11,108 nt of DNA. Origin: a virus. The number at the start of each line of letters is the position of its first letter. Positions within the stretch are counted from its first letter, which is position 1. The translations under genes and the position numbers were made by a program. The stretch lies in UHGV virus genome UHGV-0246901; one strand, 5' to 3'. Below the pieces are notes generated by a model. That model saw nothing but the letters and a program-made list of their open reading frames with translations. It made no database searches and was not told where the DNA came from. This document shows positions 5,308 through 11,108 of this stretch, one piece after another.

Positions 5308-5350
5308 AACAAAAAAGGCTCCCGTAAAAAGGAGCCTTAAACTTTATTTT
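5305..5350. terminator. bidirectional rho-independent terminator between convergent operons
   Basis: Stem AAGGCTCC(5315-5322)/GGAGCCTT(5331-5338), 8-nt loop. On the minus strand it is followed by a long T-run (complement of A-rich 5305-5314), a strong terminator for the gene ending at 5344; on the plus strand followed by AAACTTTATTTTT (weaker). Confidence 0.7.
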
Positions 5351-5715
5351 TCAGTATTCTTTGTGTTCTTTTCAGTAATAGCTTGGAGGGCTGATACTGA
5401 TTGAGCCAGATTGTTCACACTGTCAGAAAATTTATCAAGAGTTTTGGTAAGTTTTGCGTTTTCACCCTTAACATTCTCTAACTGAACTTTCTGGTTCTCC
5501 ATCCCTAGCTGAATCAGTCTCATGTCAGACTGTAAATCACGAATAGCTGAATAGTTACTTTTGGAATAATTATCCAACTGCTGTAACTTTGTTGTGACAG
5601 ACACTTCTTGTTTACCACTTGAAACTTGCATCGTGGTATACATCCCAATAACACTAAAAATACCAACTACAATTGCACCAATATTATTTTTAAAAGCTTC
5701 CTCTAGCCACTTCAT
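5344..5715 (-). CDS. membrane-anchored coiled-coil protein (123 aa); possible i-spanin-like or holin/exclusion-type protein
   Basis: N-terminal hydrophobic helix IGAIVVGIFSVIGMYTT followed by Q/L/N/K-rich heptad-like sequence; strong SD GGGGGAG; TAAATG junction with upstream gene. Function is a guess from topology only. Confidence 0.65.
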   Translation of the reverse strand: MKWLEEAFKNNIGAIVVGIFSVIGMYTTMQVSSGKQEVSVTTKLQQLDNYSKSNYSAIRDLQSDMRLIQLGMENQKVQLENVKGENAKLTKTLDKFSDSVNNLAQSVSALQAITEKNTKNTEK

Positions 5716-5910
5716 TTATTTCTCCCCCTTAAAAGCTTTTTCTAAGTTATCTACGAACTCATCATCAATAGGTGTGTCTGTTTTACTCGCAAGGTATCTT
5801 GCAAGCCTAAAGAACACTTTCTCAATCATGTATTCACTTAGAAGGGATAAAATGAGTTTCCAGAAGAAGCTACCTAGATTTTTTAGAAGAATTGCTAGGA
5901 TTGTAGGCAT
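5716..5910 (-). CDS. small membrane protein (64 aa); possible holin-like
   Basis: Hydrophobic segment ILAILLKNLGSFFWKLILSLL and acidic C-terminus; SD GAGGTG ~5 nt upstream; first gene after a sigma70-like promoter. Confidence 0.55.
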   Translation of the reverse strand: MPTILAILLKNLGSFFWKLILSLLSEYMIEKVFFRLARYLASKTDTPIDDEFVDNLEKAFKGEK

Positions 5911-5953
5911 TTAATCACCTCATCAGCCAAGATGGTGAGAATACCCATAAAGA

Positions 5954-5982
5954 ATATTAACACCATCTTAACAATCAGTCAA
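5954..5982 (-). promoter_or_regulatory. sigma70-like promoter on minus strand (TTGACT, 17-nt spacer, TAATAT)
   Basis: Reverse complement of 5977-5982 is TTGACT and of 5954-5959 is TAATAT, 17 nt apart; lies in the 64-bp gap between the tail-fibre gene and the small membrane-protein genes. A 7-bp inverted repeat GATGGTG(5931-5937)/CACCATC(5961-5967) overlaps it. Confidence 0.5.
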
Positions 5983-5989
5983 CAAGGGA

Positions 5990-8380
5990 TTAAGCAGTTC
6001 TTACCCAAGCCATTAACTTGTAGAACTGGTTAGTAACACTAAATGCTGAACCAGAACCTGTACCACCAGTGTTACCACTAACTGTATGAGTGTGAGCACC
6101 GATACCTACAGAGTGGGTGTGAGCACCAGTGTTACTTGTAGTACCAGACCATGTGTGTGTATGGTTACCAGTTGTGTTAGTGTTAGGGAATTTGTTATCA
6201 GTTCTGTCAAGCCAGTCAAGAGTTCTTGTCTTATTGTTACCAATAGTGGTATATCCGTACTGAGCATCACCACCATTAACCAATAGCAGACCTAAGTGGT
6301 GAGCGTGGTTACCAGCAGCACTTGTTGTACCACTTACAGAGTGAGTATGACCACCAGTGCTATTAGTGTTCTTCGTACCATAATCAAAAGATGAAGTGGT
6401 AGCAGAGAAACTATGGGTGTGTGAAGGCAGATTACCAACAGCTAACGTCACAGAGTCTGAACCACCTGTTGTAGCAACATCTGAACCGTTTGCTGCTGCA
6501 ATCCTGATAGTTCTACCAACACCATTGTTCAGGTACGTCCAAGTTAACCCAGGAAGTGCTGTATTAGGGTCAACGTTGCTGTTAAACCACGTTACAATAC
6601 CTACTGGATAGATTTTATTAAGGTCTGTAGAGTCACTTACTGCCTGTGCAATCTTCTGGTCAGTTTCAGCTTTAGTGTATGCACCAATATCTGAAGGGGT
6701 TGGTTTAAAGGCAGTTGTATAAATCTGTGCTTCTCCGGCATAGTCACCATTTTTGTCATAGGCATAGGTAAATGTTGCCAGTCCATTTGAGCCATACACA
6801 AAAGAGATTCCTCTTGCATGTGCAGCAGTCTTATTAGAGTGAGCAACATGAATTGCCAATTCTTTCAGTCCACTAGTAACCGCATTGTTTCTGACAAAAC
6901 CTGAATATCCAAGATTAAAACCTGAAGGGTTTTCAAGGTTATCTACAGAGACAGTCATTAAGGATTGGTTTAATAACTGAGTTTTAACAAAATATCTAGC
7001 ATCTAAGTTAGACCAATCAGAAGGTTGAACTTGACCAGTAATGGTTAGATTCTTATTAGCCTTAATCGCTGAAGGCATAAGGGTAATTTGAGTCCCAGAG
7101 TAGCTGTTGTTTAAGGCTACATCAGTAGAATTTGTGCCACCTACACCTACCCACCACCTAGATACATTCGCAGTATCAACACCACGGATATATTGTGGCT
7201 GCCCCTGTGTCAAGTTCCTCAATACTAGACCTTCATTGTTAGATACAATAGTCTGCACATTTGTAAAAGTGTTAGCCACATTAACCTTAGCAAGATTACT
7301 CAAAGTAGCTGCTGGAATATATCTAGAGTCGATATTAGCCCAATCAGAAGGTTGGACTTGACCAGTGATTCTAAAATTATTGTTTACTGCGACATGCCCA
7401 TTGTCAAGTCTAAGATAAGAACCATACACATAGTTGCTGATGAATACAGCAGGTGTATTATCACCATTTCCTACATACCACTTACCAGAACCATCATTAG
7501 CTTCGGCTTTAACGTATAGTGCAGCATTTGCTACAGTATTTTTCAACCTTAAAGCAGCACTATCACTGATAATAAGTAGGTTTCTGCTAAACGTGTTAGT
7601 GCCAGTGAAATTGTTATTGGCAGCTAACTGTGCAAATCTCTGATTAGCTGCTGTCTGAGTAAAGTATCTAGCATCTAAGTTAGAGAAGTCAGAAGGTTGC
7701 ACTTGACCATTGATTGATAAAGACCTATTAAAAGAAGCAGCCGTGCCTAGAGTGAGGATGGAACCTAGTTTACTCTCGATTTGAACATCAAGACTACCCC
7801 TAATCAGGTTCCCAATAGCCCAAGTTTTTTCATTGCTTGCATCCCTACCTACAATAGCAGAGTATGCACTATCCCCACTCACAGGAGATTTTAGTGTTAA
7901 CTGTTCCCCATTTGCTACAATGGTCTGTTTAGAGTTAAATGTGTTTGTAACAGCAAGCCTTGCGTATCTTGCATCATTCTCTTCATTAGTTCTCATCCCA
8001 AGTTCATTAGGACTTGGCTTATTCAGAGTATGATAAACAGTTGCCGACCTTGAAGCGTCTGCAATAGTTAGTTTAAGGCCGTTTGCGTTGATTTTAAAAG
8101 TCTTTAAAACATCCCCAATAGTAATCTCAGAAGAGCCTGTAGGGTCAAAGACTGCCTTGCCACCGTAAAGTAACTTAACAATTCCTAAGTCACCCTTCAT
8201 AGTGCTACCAACAATCTGAACAAATCTTTCAAGTTTAAAAGATGCTAAGAAGTCTTGATAGGTCATTCGACGGTCTTCATCACCCAGCATTTCAGGTCTC
8301 TTTTTAACTCTGACATGAAGAAGGTCATCTGAATGGATTGTATCGATTGAGTTTAATTCACTCAACTTGTAATCTGCCAT
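5990..8380 (-). CDS. tail fibre protein (796 aa) with collar-like domain and His-X-His repeats
   Basis: Three internal repeats each ending GQVQPSD(W/F)xN(L/I)DxRY; C-terminal segment resembling the phage tail-collar domain (LPGLTW...GNLPSHTHSF); 6-7 HxH motifs (HTHS, HAHH, HTHT...); C-terminus ...MAWVRTA shared with the 395-aa paralogue. Confidence 0.85.
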   Translation of the reverse strand: MADYKLSELNSIDTIHSDDLLHVRVKKRPEMLGDEDRRMTYQDFLASFKLERFVQIVGSTMKGDLGIVKLLYGGKAVFDPTGSSEITIGDVLKTFKINANGLKLTIADASRSATVYHTLNKPSPNELGMRTNEENDARYARLAVTNTFNSKQTIVANGEQLTLKSPVSGDSAYSAIVGRDASNEKTWAIGNLIRGSLDVQIESKLGSILTLGTAASFNRSLSINGQVQPSDFSNLDARYFTQTAANQRFAQLAANNNFTGTNTFSRNLLIISDSAALRLKNTVANAALYVKAEANDGSGKWYVGNGDNTPAVFISNYVYGSYLRLDNGHVAVNNNFRITGQVQPSDWANIDSRYIPAATLSNLAKVNVANTFTNVQTIVSNNEGLVLRNLTQGQPQYIRGVDTANVSRWWVGVGGTNSTDVALNNSYSGTQITLMPSAIKANKNLTITGQVQPSDWSNLDARYFVKTQLLNQSLMTVSVDNLENPSGFNLGYSGFVRNNAVTSGLKELAIHVAHSNKTAAHARGISFVYGSNGLATFTYAYDKNGDYAGEAQIYTTAFKPTPSDIGAYTKAETDQKIAQAVSDSTDLNKIYPVGIVTWFNSNVDPNTALPGLTWTYLNNGVGRTIRIAAANGSDVATTGGSDSVTLAVGNLPSHTHSFSATTSSFDYGTKNTNSTGGHTHSVSGTTSAAGNHAHHLGLLLVNGGDAQYGYTTIGNNKTRTLDWLDRTDNKFPNTNTTGNHTHTWSGTTSNTGAHTHSVGIGAHTHTVSGNTGGTGSGSAFSVTNQFYKLMAWVRTA
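6990..7716 (-). repeat. three dispersed ~50-bp direct repeats inside the 796-aa tail-fibre gene (about 6990-7045, 7314-7370, 7661-7716)
   Basis: Core CCAATCAGAAGGTTGAACTTGACCAGT (plus strand) recurs at ~335-bp spacing; first and third copies also share ATCTAGCATCTAAGTTAGA. They encode the GQVQPSDW..RY ends of three tandem protein repeats. Confidence 0.7.
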
Positions 8381-8399
8381 TATAAATTTTCCTCTTAAA

Positions 8400-8417
8400 A
8401 GGGGCTATAAAGCCCCT
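8400..8417 (-). terminator. intercistronic stem-loop between the two tail-fibre genes (possible attenuator or RNA-stability hairpin)
   Basis: On the minus strand AGGGGC-TTTATA-GCCCCT followed by TTTTAAGAGGAAAATTTATA-ATG; only a short T-run, so at most a partial terminator; the SD for the 796-aa gene lies just downstream. Confidence 0.4.
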
Positions 8418-8426
8418 GTAAAGAAA

Positions 8427-9614
8427 TTAAGCTGTTCTCTGCCATACATACAGGACGAAGGATGGCTGCTCAATGTTGAAAGCTTGTCCACCACCAACAC
8501 TATTAGTGTTCCCGCTATGCGTATGCTCAGAAGAAGAAACTGTTACAGTGCCATTGTGTGTATGTGAACCAATACCAACTGTGTGGCTGTGAGCACCAAT
8601 ACCAACCGTATGGTTGTGGTTACCAGTTGTATTAGTGGTAACACTGAAAGAGTGGGTGTGTGCACCAGCTACTTCACAGACAGCATCTGCTGAGTACCAT
8701 GATTGGTCATTCCTTGTAGACCAAACCATTGCAGGTCTTTCCGATAAACCACCACCTGCTTCATAGGTCAATCTGTGGTTGTGAGCACCAGCAGAACTTG
8801 TTGACCCACTACCAACATGGTTATGGTTACCAGTCGTGTTAGTGGTCTTAGTTCCATAGTCAAAAGAGTTAGTAGTCTTAGTTCCATAATCAAAAGCTGA
8901 AATTGACACCGTTGCATTATGAGTATGACCACCACCACTAAGAGACACAGAGTGAGAGTGTTGAGGCATGTTATTAACTGACAAAGTGACAGTTGAAGCA
9001 CCAAATACAGAACCTGCTGGTCTTGTGTCAGAGTCATAACCAACCAATGCTCTACCCTTTGAAACTAACTCCCAAGTACCTCCACAAATTAAATATGTAG
9101 AGGGGTTTGCAGAGTTCATGGAAAGATGGATAGTACCTACTGGATAGGAAGCCTGAACAGCCTTGTACAAGTTATTTACTGCTCTTGCTGTAGCGTACTT
9201 ATCTGCATCCTCATTATAAAGGTTAGATGTTGTCCAGTTCTGAACATTACTCAATCCTACCTGTGCCTTAGTTGTATTGTGTGGGTTGCTCTTGTCCTGA
9301 ATATGCTGTTGAACAAGGTTATTAACCTCTTCTGAAGACATAATCTGTAGATTTGCTCTTGCCTCAGCTACATTAACAACATCTGATAAGTTATTTGCAG
9401 CAACTAACTGAAGAGCATTAATAACATTATCTAAACCAATTTGTGTTTTAGTAACACCATGAGGGTTATTTCTTAGGCTTGAGTGTGGAGCAAGTAATTG
9501 CTCAAGAGTACATCTCTTATCCTCAATACCTTGCTTAAGATGGAAGATATCACTAAGGTCAATTGGTAAGGCTGCTTGAGGCAAGGCACTAATTTGAATT
9601 TCACCTACCGCCAT
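8427..9614 (-). CDS. tail fibre protein (395 aa), paralogue of the 796-aa protein
   Basis: N-terminal repeats NPHGVTKTQIGLDNV / NPHNTTKAQVGLSNV (phage tail-fibre repeat-like); collar-like segment ICGGTWELVSKGRALVG...NNMPQHSHSVS; nine HxH motifs; C-terminus ...VWQRTA; SD AGGAG ~8 nt upstream. Confidence 0.85.
   Translation of the reverse strand: MAVGEIQISALPQAALPIDLSDIFHLKQGIEDKRCTLEQLLAPHSSLRNNPHGVTKTQIGLDNVINALQLVAANNLSDVVNVAEARANLQIMSSEEVNNLVQQHIQDKSNPHNTTKAQVGLSNVQNWTTSNLYNEDADKYATARAVNNLYKAVQASYPVGTIHLSMNSANPSTYLICGGTWELVSKGRALVGYDSDTRPAGSVFGASTVTLSVNNMPQHSHSVSLSGGGHTHNATVSISAFDYGTKTTNSFDYGTKTTNTTGNHNHVGSGSTSSAGAHNHRLTYEAGGGLSERPAMVWSTRNDQSWYSADAVCEVAGAHTHSFSVTTNTTGNHNHTVGIGAHSHTVGIGSHTHNGTVTVSSSEHTHSGNTNSVGGGQAFNIEQPSFVLYVWQRTA
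8841..8900 (-). repeat. in-frame 30-bp tandem duplication within the 395-aa tail-fibre gene
   Basis: 8841-8870 and 8871-8900 match at 26 of 30 positions and encode a tandem SFDYGTKTTN repeat; the 796-aa paralogue has a single FDYGTKNTN. Confidence 0.8.
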
Positions 9615-9616
9615 TA

Positions 9617-11108
<1,492 letters not shown>

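Follow-up and report, generated by a model that had tools for sequence, protein, structure and literature searches.

Two neighbouring open reading frames, of 796 and 395 amino acids, lie on the minus strand of the 11,108 nucleotides of viral DNA analysed here (the window). The initial annotation, which gave their coordinates and lengths exactly, read them as tail fibres with similar ends, arising from duplication and conferring dual or alternative receptor specificity. The locus raises the questions of what the two proteins are, where their similarity comes from and whether they act together on the particle. The reading favoured here, with a probability of roughly 0.88, is a pair of side fibres from a Felixounavirus myophage, the 796-aa product being the long one (hereafter LTF) and the 395-aa product the short one (STF). 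All features described below lie on the minus strand.

Genomic setting of the fibre genes

The window shares 94-96% DNA identity with the Felixounavirus genomes KhF1 and LF110P2 and, judging from its sequence, belongs to a Felixounavirus, a Felix O1-like myophage of E. coli. The order of its genes (wedge 2, wedge 1, platform, STF, LTF, proteins of 64 and 123 aa, td/frd) matches KhF1, Sf14, Moogle and Bas63, as do the gene lengths; td/frd are convergent to the baseplate module and lie beyond the two small ORFs downstream of the LTF. Across Bas63 gp24-gp29, identity to the proteins of the window ranges from 60 to 100%. Upstream of the STF, a 100-aa protein (9617..9919) matches phrog_4141 over its full length and is 99% identical to Bas63 gp25, the LTF-platform, which is the attachment point for the long fibre (PMC12609058). 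It is followed by a 285-aa protein (9919..10776) with matches to phrog_4017 ('baseplate protein') and Pfam DUF2612, 97% identical to Bas63 gp24, the baseplate wedge 1 that carries the LTF platform (PMC12609058).

The LTF gene (5990..8380) is the orthologue of Bas63 gp27, Sf14 gp53 and VpaE1 gp75; its product is 60% identical to the first and 48% to the second, and matches phrog_4277 ('tail fiber protein') over its full length with 1232 bits. The STF gene (8427..9614) corresponds to Bas63 gp26 (75% identity), Sf14 gp52 (69%) and VpaE1 gp74, and its product, too, matches a PHROG over its full length, phrog_2097 (1.4e-137). Public assemblies already hold a protein 100% identical to the LTF (P0121/P0122), and proteins 99% identical to the STF are likewise present in public data.

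Between the STF stop codon and the ribosome-binding site of the LTF lies a hairpin (AGGGGCT-TTAT-AGCCCCT plus three further T; 8397..8417) with a folding energy of -16.5 kcal/mol and a z of -3.6. KhF1, Sf14 and Moogle keep it with an altered loop, while phiEa21-4 has a different hairpin at this position, and the records of Moogle and phiEa21-4 annotate it as 'terminator'. The element appears terminator-like. A search of the window for homologues of gp38 or gp57A returned none.

Domain architecture and the common tip

The C-terminal parts of the two proteins are clearly related. LTF residues 564-796 and STF residues 136-395 align by BLASTP with composition adjustment over ~260 residues with 33% identity, 44% positives and an E-value of 5e-22. 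All six HxH motifs of the LTF stand opposite HxH motifs of the STF and are also aligned to those of T4 gp37, the three extra STF motifs falling in insertions. The nine motifs claimed for the STF were recovered, and the '6-7' claimed for the LTF resolve into six strict motifs plus one extra histidine. In 5000 residue shuffles the mean number of HxH was 0.5-1.4 and the maximum never rose above six. The shared ending that had been pointed out, (A/V)W(V/Q)RTA, is likewise present (...LMAWVRTA in the LTF, ...LYVWQRTA in the STF). In both tips the sequence alignment places a variable block of 38-44 residues between two runs of HxH. Across the pair, the Pfam hits were Gp10_C, gp37_trimer and Phage_fiber. 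In the PDB, searched with phmmer, a tip was defined by significant similarity to gp37 residues ~785-1026, and both modules match 2XGF, the crystal structure of the T4 gp37 tip, so their similarity reflects positional homology, with HxH in register, rather than His/Gly/Thr composition. The two proteins are thus, on sequence grounds, tail fibres with homologous gp37-type tips, a fold whose metal-binding rungs are known to consist of HxH arrays (PMC12609058).

The LTF begins with a region (residues 1-124; 8009..8380) that is 94-100% conserved in the family and comprises a baseplate-binding segment, its first ~45 aa with the motif EDRRMT at 35-40, and a first, divergent rod segment. Residues 125-463 (6992..8008) form three tandem repeats of ~110-115 aa resembling the rods of T4 gp34/gp37, with bounds at 125-239, 240-354 and 355-463; each terminates in GQVQPSD(F/W)xNxDxRY, pairwise E-values range from 3e-13 to 6e-22, and at the DNA level they constitute repeat family D2. 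The Pfam family gp37_trimer (PF20744), which describes rod units of ~95 aa, matches three stretches in the LTF only (E 1.9e-58). The first repeat is just 49-61% identical to cultured relatives, and outside it the LTF is at least 95% identical to that of LF110P2. Repeat 1 is the sole part of the protein without a match in cultured phages. A last rod segment (464-582; 6635..6991), placed by alignment and by a weak gp37_C match at 546-585, precedes the tip.

The LTF tip opens with the collar (583-652; 6425..6634), which is 99% conserved in the family. The collar-like segment attributed to both proteins was borne out: the STF scores 68 bits against Gp10_C (PF21939), and the LTF, at 21 bits, stays under the 27-bit cutoff. 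The alignment of the LTF to 2XGF spans only residues 649-775 and so begins past the collar, which is supported instead by how it aligns with the collars of the STF and of the prophage fibre P0099, the latter ~60% identical to it and passing PF21939. The needle (653-775; 6056..6424; 2XGF match with E 1.4e-20) carries three ascending HxH (654, 678 and 692, the last as HAHH) and three descending ones (740, 754 and 763). The head between them (696-739) ranges from 18 to 100% identity among relatives and is wholly unlike that of Bas63. The C-terminal strand (776-796 and stop; 5990..6055), ...FSVTNQFYKLMAWVRTA, is conserved with the STF, and its pattern is common to prophage fibres ending in KLMGWYRTA and to the T4-like IAFNYIVRLA; it would run back to the collar.

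The STF starts with a baseplate-binding N-terminus followed by two helix-turn motifs (1-145; 9180..9614), delimited by motif positions, the family alignment and invariant columns: EDKRCT stands at 31-36 and NPHxxTKxQ(I/V)GLxNV at 50-64 and 110-124. The structural role of this region is taken from the Bas63 study (PMC12609058). Its collar (146-217; 8964..9179) is recognised by Gp10_C (2e-18, 68 bits, cutoff 27). The alignment to 2XGF covers residues 146-367 (E 5e-26), from the collar through the needle (218-372; 8499..8963), which has four ascending HxH (219, 230, 264, 278), five descending ones (319, 333, 342, 351, 364) and a duplication of FDYGTKTTN at 241-260. The head (281-318) is the least conserved block in the family (0.32-0.44 identity). 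The C-terminal strand (373-395 and stop; 8427..8498), ...AFNIEQPSFVLYVWQRTA, keeps Y389, W391 and R393 invariant in 30 orthologues. A single-chain AF2 model of the STF had a mean pLDDT of 59 and a pTM of 0.25; the collar, recorded in its own entry as the part of highest confidence, reached 77-87 and the C-terminal strand 89. Foldseek with this low-confidence model gave no significant structural match, and for these reasons the fold assignment leans on sequence homology and on cryo-EM from the literature.

The N-terminal architectures had been described as different. This holds for the rod of ~500 aa that is inserted in the LTF alone and fails for the very start, where both proteins open with a weakly similar segment of ~45 residues bearing ED(K/R)R(C/M)T (profile-profile comparison with hhalign, E 7.9e-5). 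For the LTF, the attachment role of this segment is taken from cryo-EM of Bas63 (PMC12609058).

Origin of the two tips

The initial annotation derived the pair from duplication. A recent tandem duplication of one ancestral fibre gene, with copies diverging in length and specificity, would account for adjacent genes on the same strand that share a motif at the N-terminus and a tip at the C-terminus, and for the STF family being the second-best PHROG family of the LTF (2.4e-47), but the relationships of the tips make it quite unlikely. The LTF tip scores 167-171 bits with prophage fibres against 81-95 with STFs, and is 45% identical to the Klebsiella prophage fibre P0099 against 33% to the STF; the STF tip scores 94-128 bits with other fibres against 56-75 with LTFs. 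Searching exhaustively with the LTF tip brought up representatives of the STF family from rank ~133 onwards among cluster representatives. The non-repetitive collar by itself gave the same order of scores as the whole tips, and with fibres from other, unrelated phages and prophages both tip and collar reached two to five times the score that they had with the neighbour. Neither tip thus appears to be the nearest relative of the other, and the score ranks already point against the two forming a clade.

Extended DNA identity between the two genes was not found, and only short DNA repeats of 64-85% identity are common to them. Moreover, Kolesnikvirus phiEa21-4 keeps the STF while its second fibre comes from different genes, which fits module replacement. 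Taken at the level of sequence, the tips are distantly homologous and stem from separate branches of a tip-module family in wide exchange, and are not the outcome of a recent duplication within this genome; as a lineage-specific event, duplication lacks support, given the many closer relatives that each tip has elsewhere. An ancient duplication, followed by divergence and by export of tips to other phages, may be compatible with the score ranks. Since each tip comes from its own branch of a widely shared pool of modules, recombination with unrelated phages and prophages can alter the specificity of one fibre independently of the other.

Role on the virion and comparison with known systems

In close relatives both fibre proteins occur together on the virion, as observed by mass spectrometry in VpaE1 and Sf14 and by cryo-EM in Sf14 and Bas63, and their tips, above all the head between the HxH runs, are the variable, specificity-determining parts (PMC12609058, PMC11821841, PMC4690856). 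Two receptor-binding proteins, as proposed at the outset, are therefore a fair reading of the locus. Alternative fibres, of which only one would be expressed or mounted at a time for an either/or host range, as with the invertible G segment of Mu, are very improbable: the Sf14 authors do draw the Mu analogy (PMC11821841), a terminator-like hairpin separates the genes and long-fibre occupancy on Bas63 particles ranges from 0 to 6 (PMC12609058), but both genes lie on the same strand, each with its own ribosome-binding site, no flanking inverted repeats point to inversion, and the relatives carry both proteins at once. Scarcely credible is a 395-aa protein acting as a gp10-like baseplate wedge or pin component instead of a receptor-binding fibre, since the similarity that suggests it (Gp10_C and T4 gp10 chains at residues 143-220, the latter with E 2e-5, and the Moogle annotation 'baseplate wedge subunit and tail pin') is confined to the collar, which gp37 also has and where 2XGF matches too, the remainder matching the needle and head of gp37, with a hypervariable head as expected for a receptor-binding site and a 430-Å short fibre seen along the sheath by cryo-EM in Sf14 and Bas63 (PMC11821841, PMC12609058).

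For a long and a short side fibre, the following mechanism can be proposed. By homology, each protein has a short baseplate-binding segment at its start and a T4 gp37-type receptor-binding tip at its end, the long fibre alone adding a rod of ~500 residues with three clear repeats of ~110-115 aa. In the tip, the chain would leave a globular collar, run along a beta-needle, form the small variable head and return to the collar with its last strand, ...W-x-R-T-A; gp37-like tips of collar, needle and head are present on both fibres of relatives, and cryo-EM of orthologues shows the chain reversal at the head and the intertwined homotrimer (PMC12609058). As in T4 gp37 and in the cryo-EM of Bas63 and Sf14, both fibres are probably homotrimers, in which HxH from the three chains would create one octahedral metal site on the needle axis, occupied by Fe in T4. 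One site per rung predicts six sites for the LTF and nine for the STF. Judging from relatives, six copies of each fibre would sit on the baseplate and fold up along the sheath, the long one attached via the 100-aa platform on wedge 1 and the short one to wedge 2. Long fibres may detach and sample the cell surface reversibly, short fibres may engage later, and short-fibre binding would then lead to baseplate rearrangement and sheath contraction. In Bas63 the sequence of LTF, then STF is the authors' proposal, the fibre density being too weak for side chains (PMC12609058). Most likely the variable heads recognise core sugars of LPS as the receptor: LPS is the receptor of Bas63, Sf14 and VpaE1, VpaE1 using the LPS core in truncated form (PMC4690856) and Bas63 needing an intact core. 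Host, receptor, order of engagement and metal are all what we infer from relatives and T4.

Pairs of fibres with gp37-like HxH tips are already known in Felix O1-like phages. The literature has covered the arrangement since 2015, and two studies of 2025 visualised it; as sequence analysis, mass spectrometry and cryo-EM had already described it in close relatives, the finding, though correct, is ordinary and has little discovery value. Its use lies in annotation and engineering: the heads (LTF 696-739, STF 281-318) are the segments to exchange when such phages are retargeted. A more speculative and rather doubtful proposal is that the repeat 1 shaft cassette (125-239) is an independently exchanged determinant of specificity, either a second, lateral site of contact with surface glycans or the sheath-docking site of the folded fibre. 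If so, Felixounavirus host range would be set combinatorially by the LTF shaft cassette, the LTF head and the STF head, all three drawn from a common pool that also supplies prophage fibres.

Among the closest described systems is Escherichia phage JohannRWettstein (Bas63), whose gp26/gp27 were studied by cryo-EM (Sci Adv 2025; PMC12609058). It shares the genus, the gene order and the domain plan: a baseplate-binding N-terminus, a rod in the LTF alone and a gp37-type collar-needle-head tip in both fibres. The proteins that flank its fibres (platform, wedge and the small downstream ones) have 97-100% identity to their counterparts in the window. Its STF has 382 aa and seven HxH (two up, five down), against 395 aa and nine (four up, five down) here, and its LTF, of 784 aa against 796, bears a head of unrelated sequence and has diverged in the rod repeats. 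Shigella phage Sf14 (Mooglevirus; Commun Biol 2025) has the same synteny and architecture in gp52/gp53; both fibres were found in its particles by mass spectrometry, with lengths of 430 Å and 630 Å, and ED(R/K)(K/R)(C/M)T, noted near both of its N-termini, is present here as well (PMC11821841). The needle of its LTF lacks several HxH rungs and its head differs. Escherichia phage vB_EcoM_VpaE1 (gp74/gp75), a Felixounavirus with ~90% DNA identity over 83% of the region, differs from this phage in its tips and in the central part of its long fibre; there the C-terminal regions of both fibres were reported in 2015 (Viruses) as homologous to the T4 gp37 adhesin and only distantly related (PMC4690856).

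The likeness to T4 that had been suggested stands for the gp37 tip and its metal-binding HxH rungs and falls for gp12. The STF resembles gp12 in the name 'short tail fibre' and in its proposed late engagement, and its collar is related to the C-terminal domain of T4 gp10. As a gp12 homologue it was rejected, the PDB search returning only gp37 and gp10 chains and the Pfam hits including no gp12 family. Unlike gp12, the STF amounts to the LTF in shortened form and would lie along the sheath and not under the baseplate. The T4 gp37 tip (2XGF) has the same collar, the same HxH rungs on the outgoing and the returning strand and the same C-terminal strand pattern, and its six-stranded needle and small head are probably shared as well; in T4 it caps a fibre of four proteins (gp34-37) and has seven HxH, whereas here single-protein fibres carry six or nine. 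Outside the Ounavirinae, the nearest relatives of the LTF tip are prophage fibres such as P0099 of Klebsiella pneumoniae, which share collar, needle and C-terminus and end in KLMGWYRTA; these enterobacterial fibres belong to a temperate-phage context and have an entirely different attachment domain and shaft, with a PF12571 N-terminus.

Two adjacent fibres and the architecture of their tips

Two adjacent reading frames on the minus strand encode the long tail fibre (LTF, 796 aa, 5990..8380) and the short tail fibre (STF, 395 aa, 8427..9614), with the same coordinates as in the initial annotation. The LTF carries six His-X-His (HxH) motifs, at residues 654, 678, 692, 740, 754 and 763, the third reading HAHH, while the STF carries nine, at 219, 230, 264, 278, 319, 333, 342, 351 and 364; the proteins end in LMAWVRTA and LYVWQRTA, respectively. 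Residue shuffles of either protein yielded on average 0.5-1.4 motifs and at most six (5000 trials), which places the arrays far beyond chance. The number of HxH rungs is variable rather than fixed, as STF orthologues have 6-11 each, nine being the commonest among the closest relatives.

Both tips are homologous to the receptor-binding tip of T4 gp37 (PDB 2XGF), which is matched by LTF residues 649-775 (E 1.4e-20) and STF residues 146-367 (E 5e-26). The STF collar also matches T4 gp10 chains, and Pfam Gp10_C scores 68 bits in the STF (cutoff 27) and a sub-threshold 21 bits in the LTF, where Pfam additionally identifies three gp37_trimer units (1.9e-58) and one Phage_fiber repeat; NCBIfam returned no family for the LTF, the STF or the neighbouring proteins. 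Together with orthology to characterised fibres, these matches bear out, in outline, the earlier picture of two receptor-binding fibres with related gp37-type tips; the link to T4 gp12 is unsupported, the structures matched being those of gp37 and, for the collar, gp10.

By alignment, the collar occupies residues 583-652 of the LTF and 146-217 of the STF, and is followed by an outgoing needle strand with three HxH motifs in the LTF and four in the STF, a head of 38-44 residues (696-739 and 281-318), a returning strand with three and five motifs, and a last, conserved strand. For the exact T4 domain boundaries, the alignments were combined with the description in PMC12609058. The last strand follows the pattern hydrophobic-(Y/A)-h-W-x-R-(T/V)-A in all orthologues, with Y389, W391 and R393 invariant across 30 STFs, and it also appears in prophage fibres (KLMGWYRTA) and T4-like proteins (IAFNYIVRLA). 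In the Klebsiella pneumoniae prophage fibre P0099, a single Gp10_C match spans the collar and the needle up to the last residues, and in the AF2 model of the STF confidence is confined to the collar and the last ten residues; from this we infer that the collar is completed, after the needle excursion, by the conserved C-terminal strand. That model, of a single chain and built on a 30-sequence alignment, has a mean pLDDT of 59 and a pTM of 0.25, and a Foldseek search with it against the PDB gave no match at E <= 0.001, as is to be expected for an intertwined trimer. The head is the least conserved block of the STF family, with an identity of 0.32-0.44 against 0.8-0.99 elsewhere, and the LTF head is unrelated to that of the Bas63 LTF; such variability is as would be expected of a specificity determinant.

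Homology and origin of the two tips

LTF 564-796 and STF 136-395 align with 33% identity (composition-adjusted BLASTP, E 5e-22), and in this alignment all six LTF motifs lie opposite STF motifs. The three extra STF motifs fall within insertions, one of which is a duplicated FDYGTKTTN unit. Likeness of composition without positional conservation, as a low-complexity artefact would produce, is ruled out by the composition adjustment, the 2XGF matches and the collar-only comparison described below; the motifs are in register, the homology is positional, and the shared module first noticed from the sequence is thus confirmed.

Recent paralogy of the tips would make each the nearest relative of the other. 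In phmmer searches of one local database, the LTF tip scored 167-171 bits with the prophage fibres P0091, P0099, P0089 and P0084 and 81-95 bits with Felixounavirus STFs, while the STF tip scored 94-128 bits with other fibres, gp37-like proteins among them, and 56-75 with LTFs. Identity of the LTF tip to P0099, which has a PF12571 N-terminus, is 45% over 230 residues, against 33% to the STF. Searched exhaustively with HMMER, 1.84 billion representatives yielded 1339 relatives of the LTF tip; among the matches listed, lengths ranged from 82 to 1226 aa and STF-family representatives appeared at about rank 133. As needle repeats could inflate such scores, the collars were also compared alone: with the LTF collar, other fibres gave 70-129 bits and STFs no more than 22; with the STF collar, other fibres gave up to 61 bits and LTFs no more than 14.5. 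Since neither tip has the other as its nearest relative, the two are probably distant homologues that belong to different branches of a family of exchangeable modules.

An ancient duplication of the tips could still lie behind this distant homology. A recent, lineage-specific one, as implied by the initial proposal that the two tips arose from duplication, is unsupported, given that tip and collar both score higher with fibres of other phages. The DNA shared by the two genes is confined to repeats of 18-53 nt with 64-85% identity in the HxH-coding stretches; recent gene conversion is rejected on account of these short and diverged direct repeats, and an invertible segment because the sole inverted pair measures 23 nt at 83% identity.

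N-termini, rod and flanking elements

The N-terminal architecture of the fibres had been described as different, which is only part of the picture. When the N-terminal 75 residues of the LTF and STF families are compared as profiles, ~40 columns align (hhalign E 7.9e-5, probability 61%), the ED(K/R)R(C/M)T motif among them, and this relatedness agrees with the baseplate-binding domain of shared structure that was reported for Bas63. A protein search with the N-terminal 140 aa of the LTF found 8 fragments only and no diverse homologues; phage records supplied the divergent N-termini.

What truly sets the two architectures apart is the rod of the LTF. It contains three clear tandem repeats (residues 125-239, 240-354 and 355-463; pairwise E 3e-13 to 6e-22), each closing with GQVQPSD(F/W)xNxDxRY. 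Repeat 1 (7664-8008, residues 125-239) is 49-61% identical to all cultured relatives, while the remainder of the LTF is at least 95% identical to that of LF110P2, which indicates a mosaic; metagenome assemblies contain the identical repeat 1 allele. Repeat 1 is a recombination cassette, located in the shaft rather than in the tip.

The 46 nt that separate the STF stop from the LTF start hold a GC-rich hairpin, AGGGGCT-TTAT-AGCCCCT, followed by three more T (8397-8417, minus strand; -16.5 kcal/mol, z -3.6) and located immediately before the ribosome-binding site of the LTF. It was missed by the terminator scan (its T-run is four T), spotted by eye and then folded. The hairpin is kept in KhF1, Sf14 and Moogle, where its loop differs, is labelled a terminator in two records, and has a different hairpin in its place in phiEa21-4. 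This putative terminator could attenuate transcription into the LTF gene. LTF occupancy is reported to vary among Bas63 particles (PMC12609058).

Just past the LTF stop, a strong nested hairpin (5905-5995, minus strand; -33.2 kcal/mol, z -6.4) may form a terminator/promoter junction between the fibre genes and the next two small genes. It overlaps a promoter-like TTGACT-17-TAATAT with a TG extension, ahead of a 64-aa ORF (5716-5910, minus strand, phrog_402) whose N-terminus looks hydrophobic by eye. The second small ORF (5344-5715, minus strand, 123 aa, phrog_4038) seems, by eye, to have an N-terminal membrane segment and gave weak coiled-coil-type matches; its homologue is named 'putative holin' in the Sf14 and Moogle records, yet was detected by MS in Sf14 particles, where it could be either a virion protein or a contaminant. 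A palindromic GC-rich hairpin with flanking A- and T-runs (5315-5338), called a terminator on both strands and annotated as Rho-independent in KhF1, separates this ORF from the convergent thymidylate synthase gene on the plus strand. The KhF1 record also places a 10-nt 'cos' inside the LTF coding sequence (L001 6740-6749), along with further short 'binding sites' in the module. They appear to have been assigned by the depositor through pattern matching, and a functional role for them is unlikely; the 'cos', lying within a coding region, was set aside.

Comparison with characterised relatives

By analogy with T4 and with cryo-EM of relatives, both fibres would be homotrimers, six of each per virion, with each HxH triplet holding one axial metal site, for a predicted six sites in the LTF and nine in the STF. 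The fibres would be folded along the sheath, the long one sampling the surface reversibly and the short one engaging afterwards, with the heads reading LPS core structures.

The fibre region is 94-96% identical in DNA to Felixounavirus genomes (LF110P2, KhF1, LF82P3 and others), with 243 phage records matching, and is surrounded by the genes of a Felix O1-type baseplate module followed by the convergent thymidylate synthase and dihydrofolate reductase genes. Public assemblies already include a protein 100% identical to the LTF and another 99% identical to the STF. Gene order and lengths are as in Sf14, Moogle and Bas63; identity to Bas63 (MZ501086) is 97% for the 285-aa wedge 1, 99% for the 100-aa platform protein, 75% for the STF (395 vs 382 aa), 60% for the LTF (796 vs 784 aa) and 98-100% for the two small ORFs downstream of the LTF.

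The essential points of the finding are all already known, having been published for very close relatives. In VpaE1, the two tail-fibre proteins, gp74 and gp75, are both present in the virion, and their C-terminal regions are similar to the T4 gp37 adhesin (Simoliunas et al. 2015, PMC4690856). In Sf14, gp52 (430 A) and gp53 (630 A) were docked into the tail map and detected by MS, an ED-R-K-(C/M)-T motif was noted near both N-termini, and different receptors were proposed for the two fibres (Subramanian et al. 2025, PMC11821841). [quoted passage not shown] The Bas63 STF has seven motifs against nine here, extra xDYGxK units having taken the place of two outgoing rungs. In the Kolesnikvirus phiEa21-4 (an Erwinia phage; L004 5162-9065), an STF orthologue is retained, but three genes take the place of the long fibre: one for a 502-aa protein with the LTF N-terminus, one for a 244-aa 'tail fiber protein' and one for a product of >550 aa that is truncated by the end of the locus. 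The second fibre is thus exchangeable in its distal part across the subfamily.
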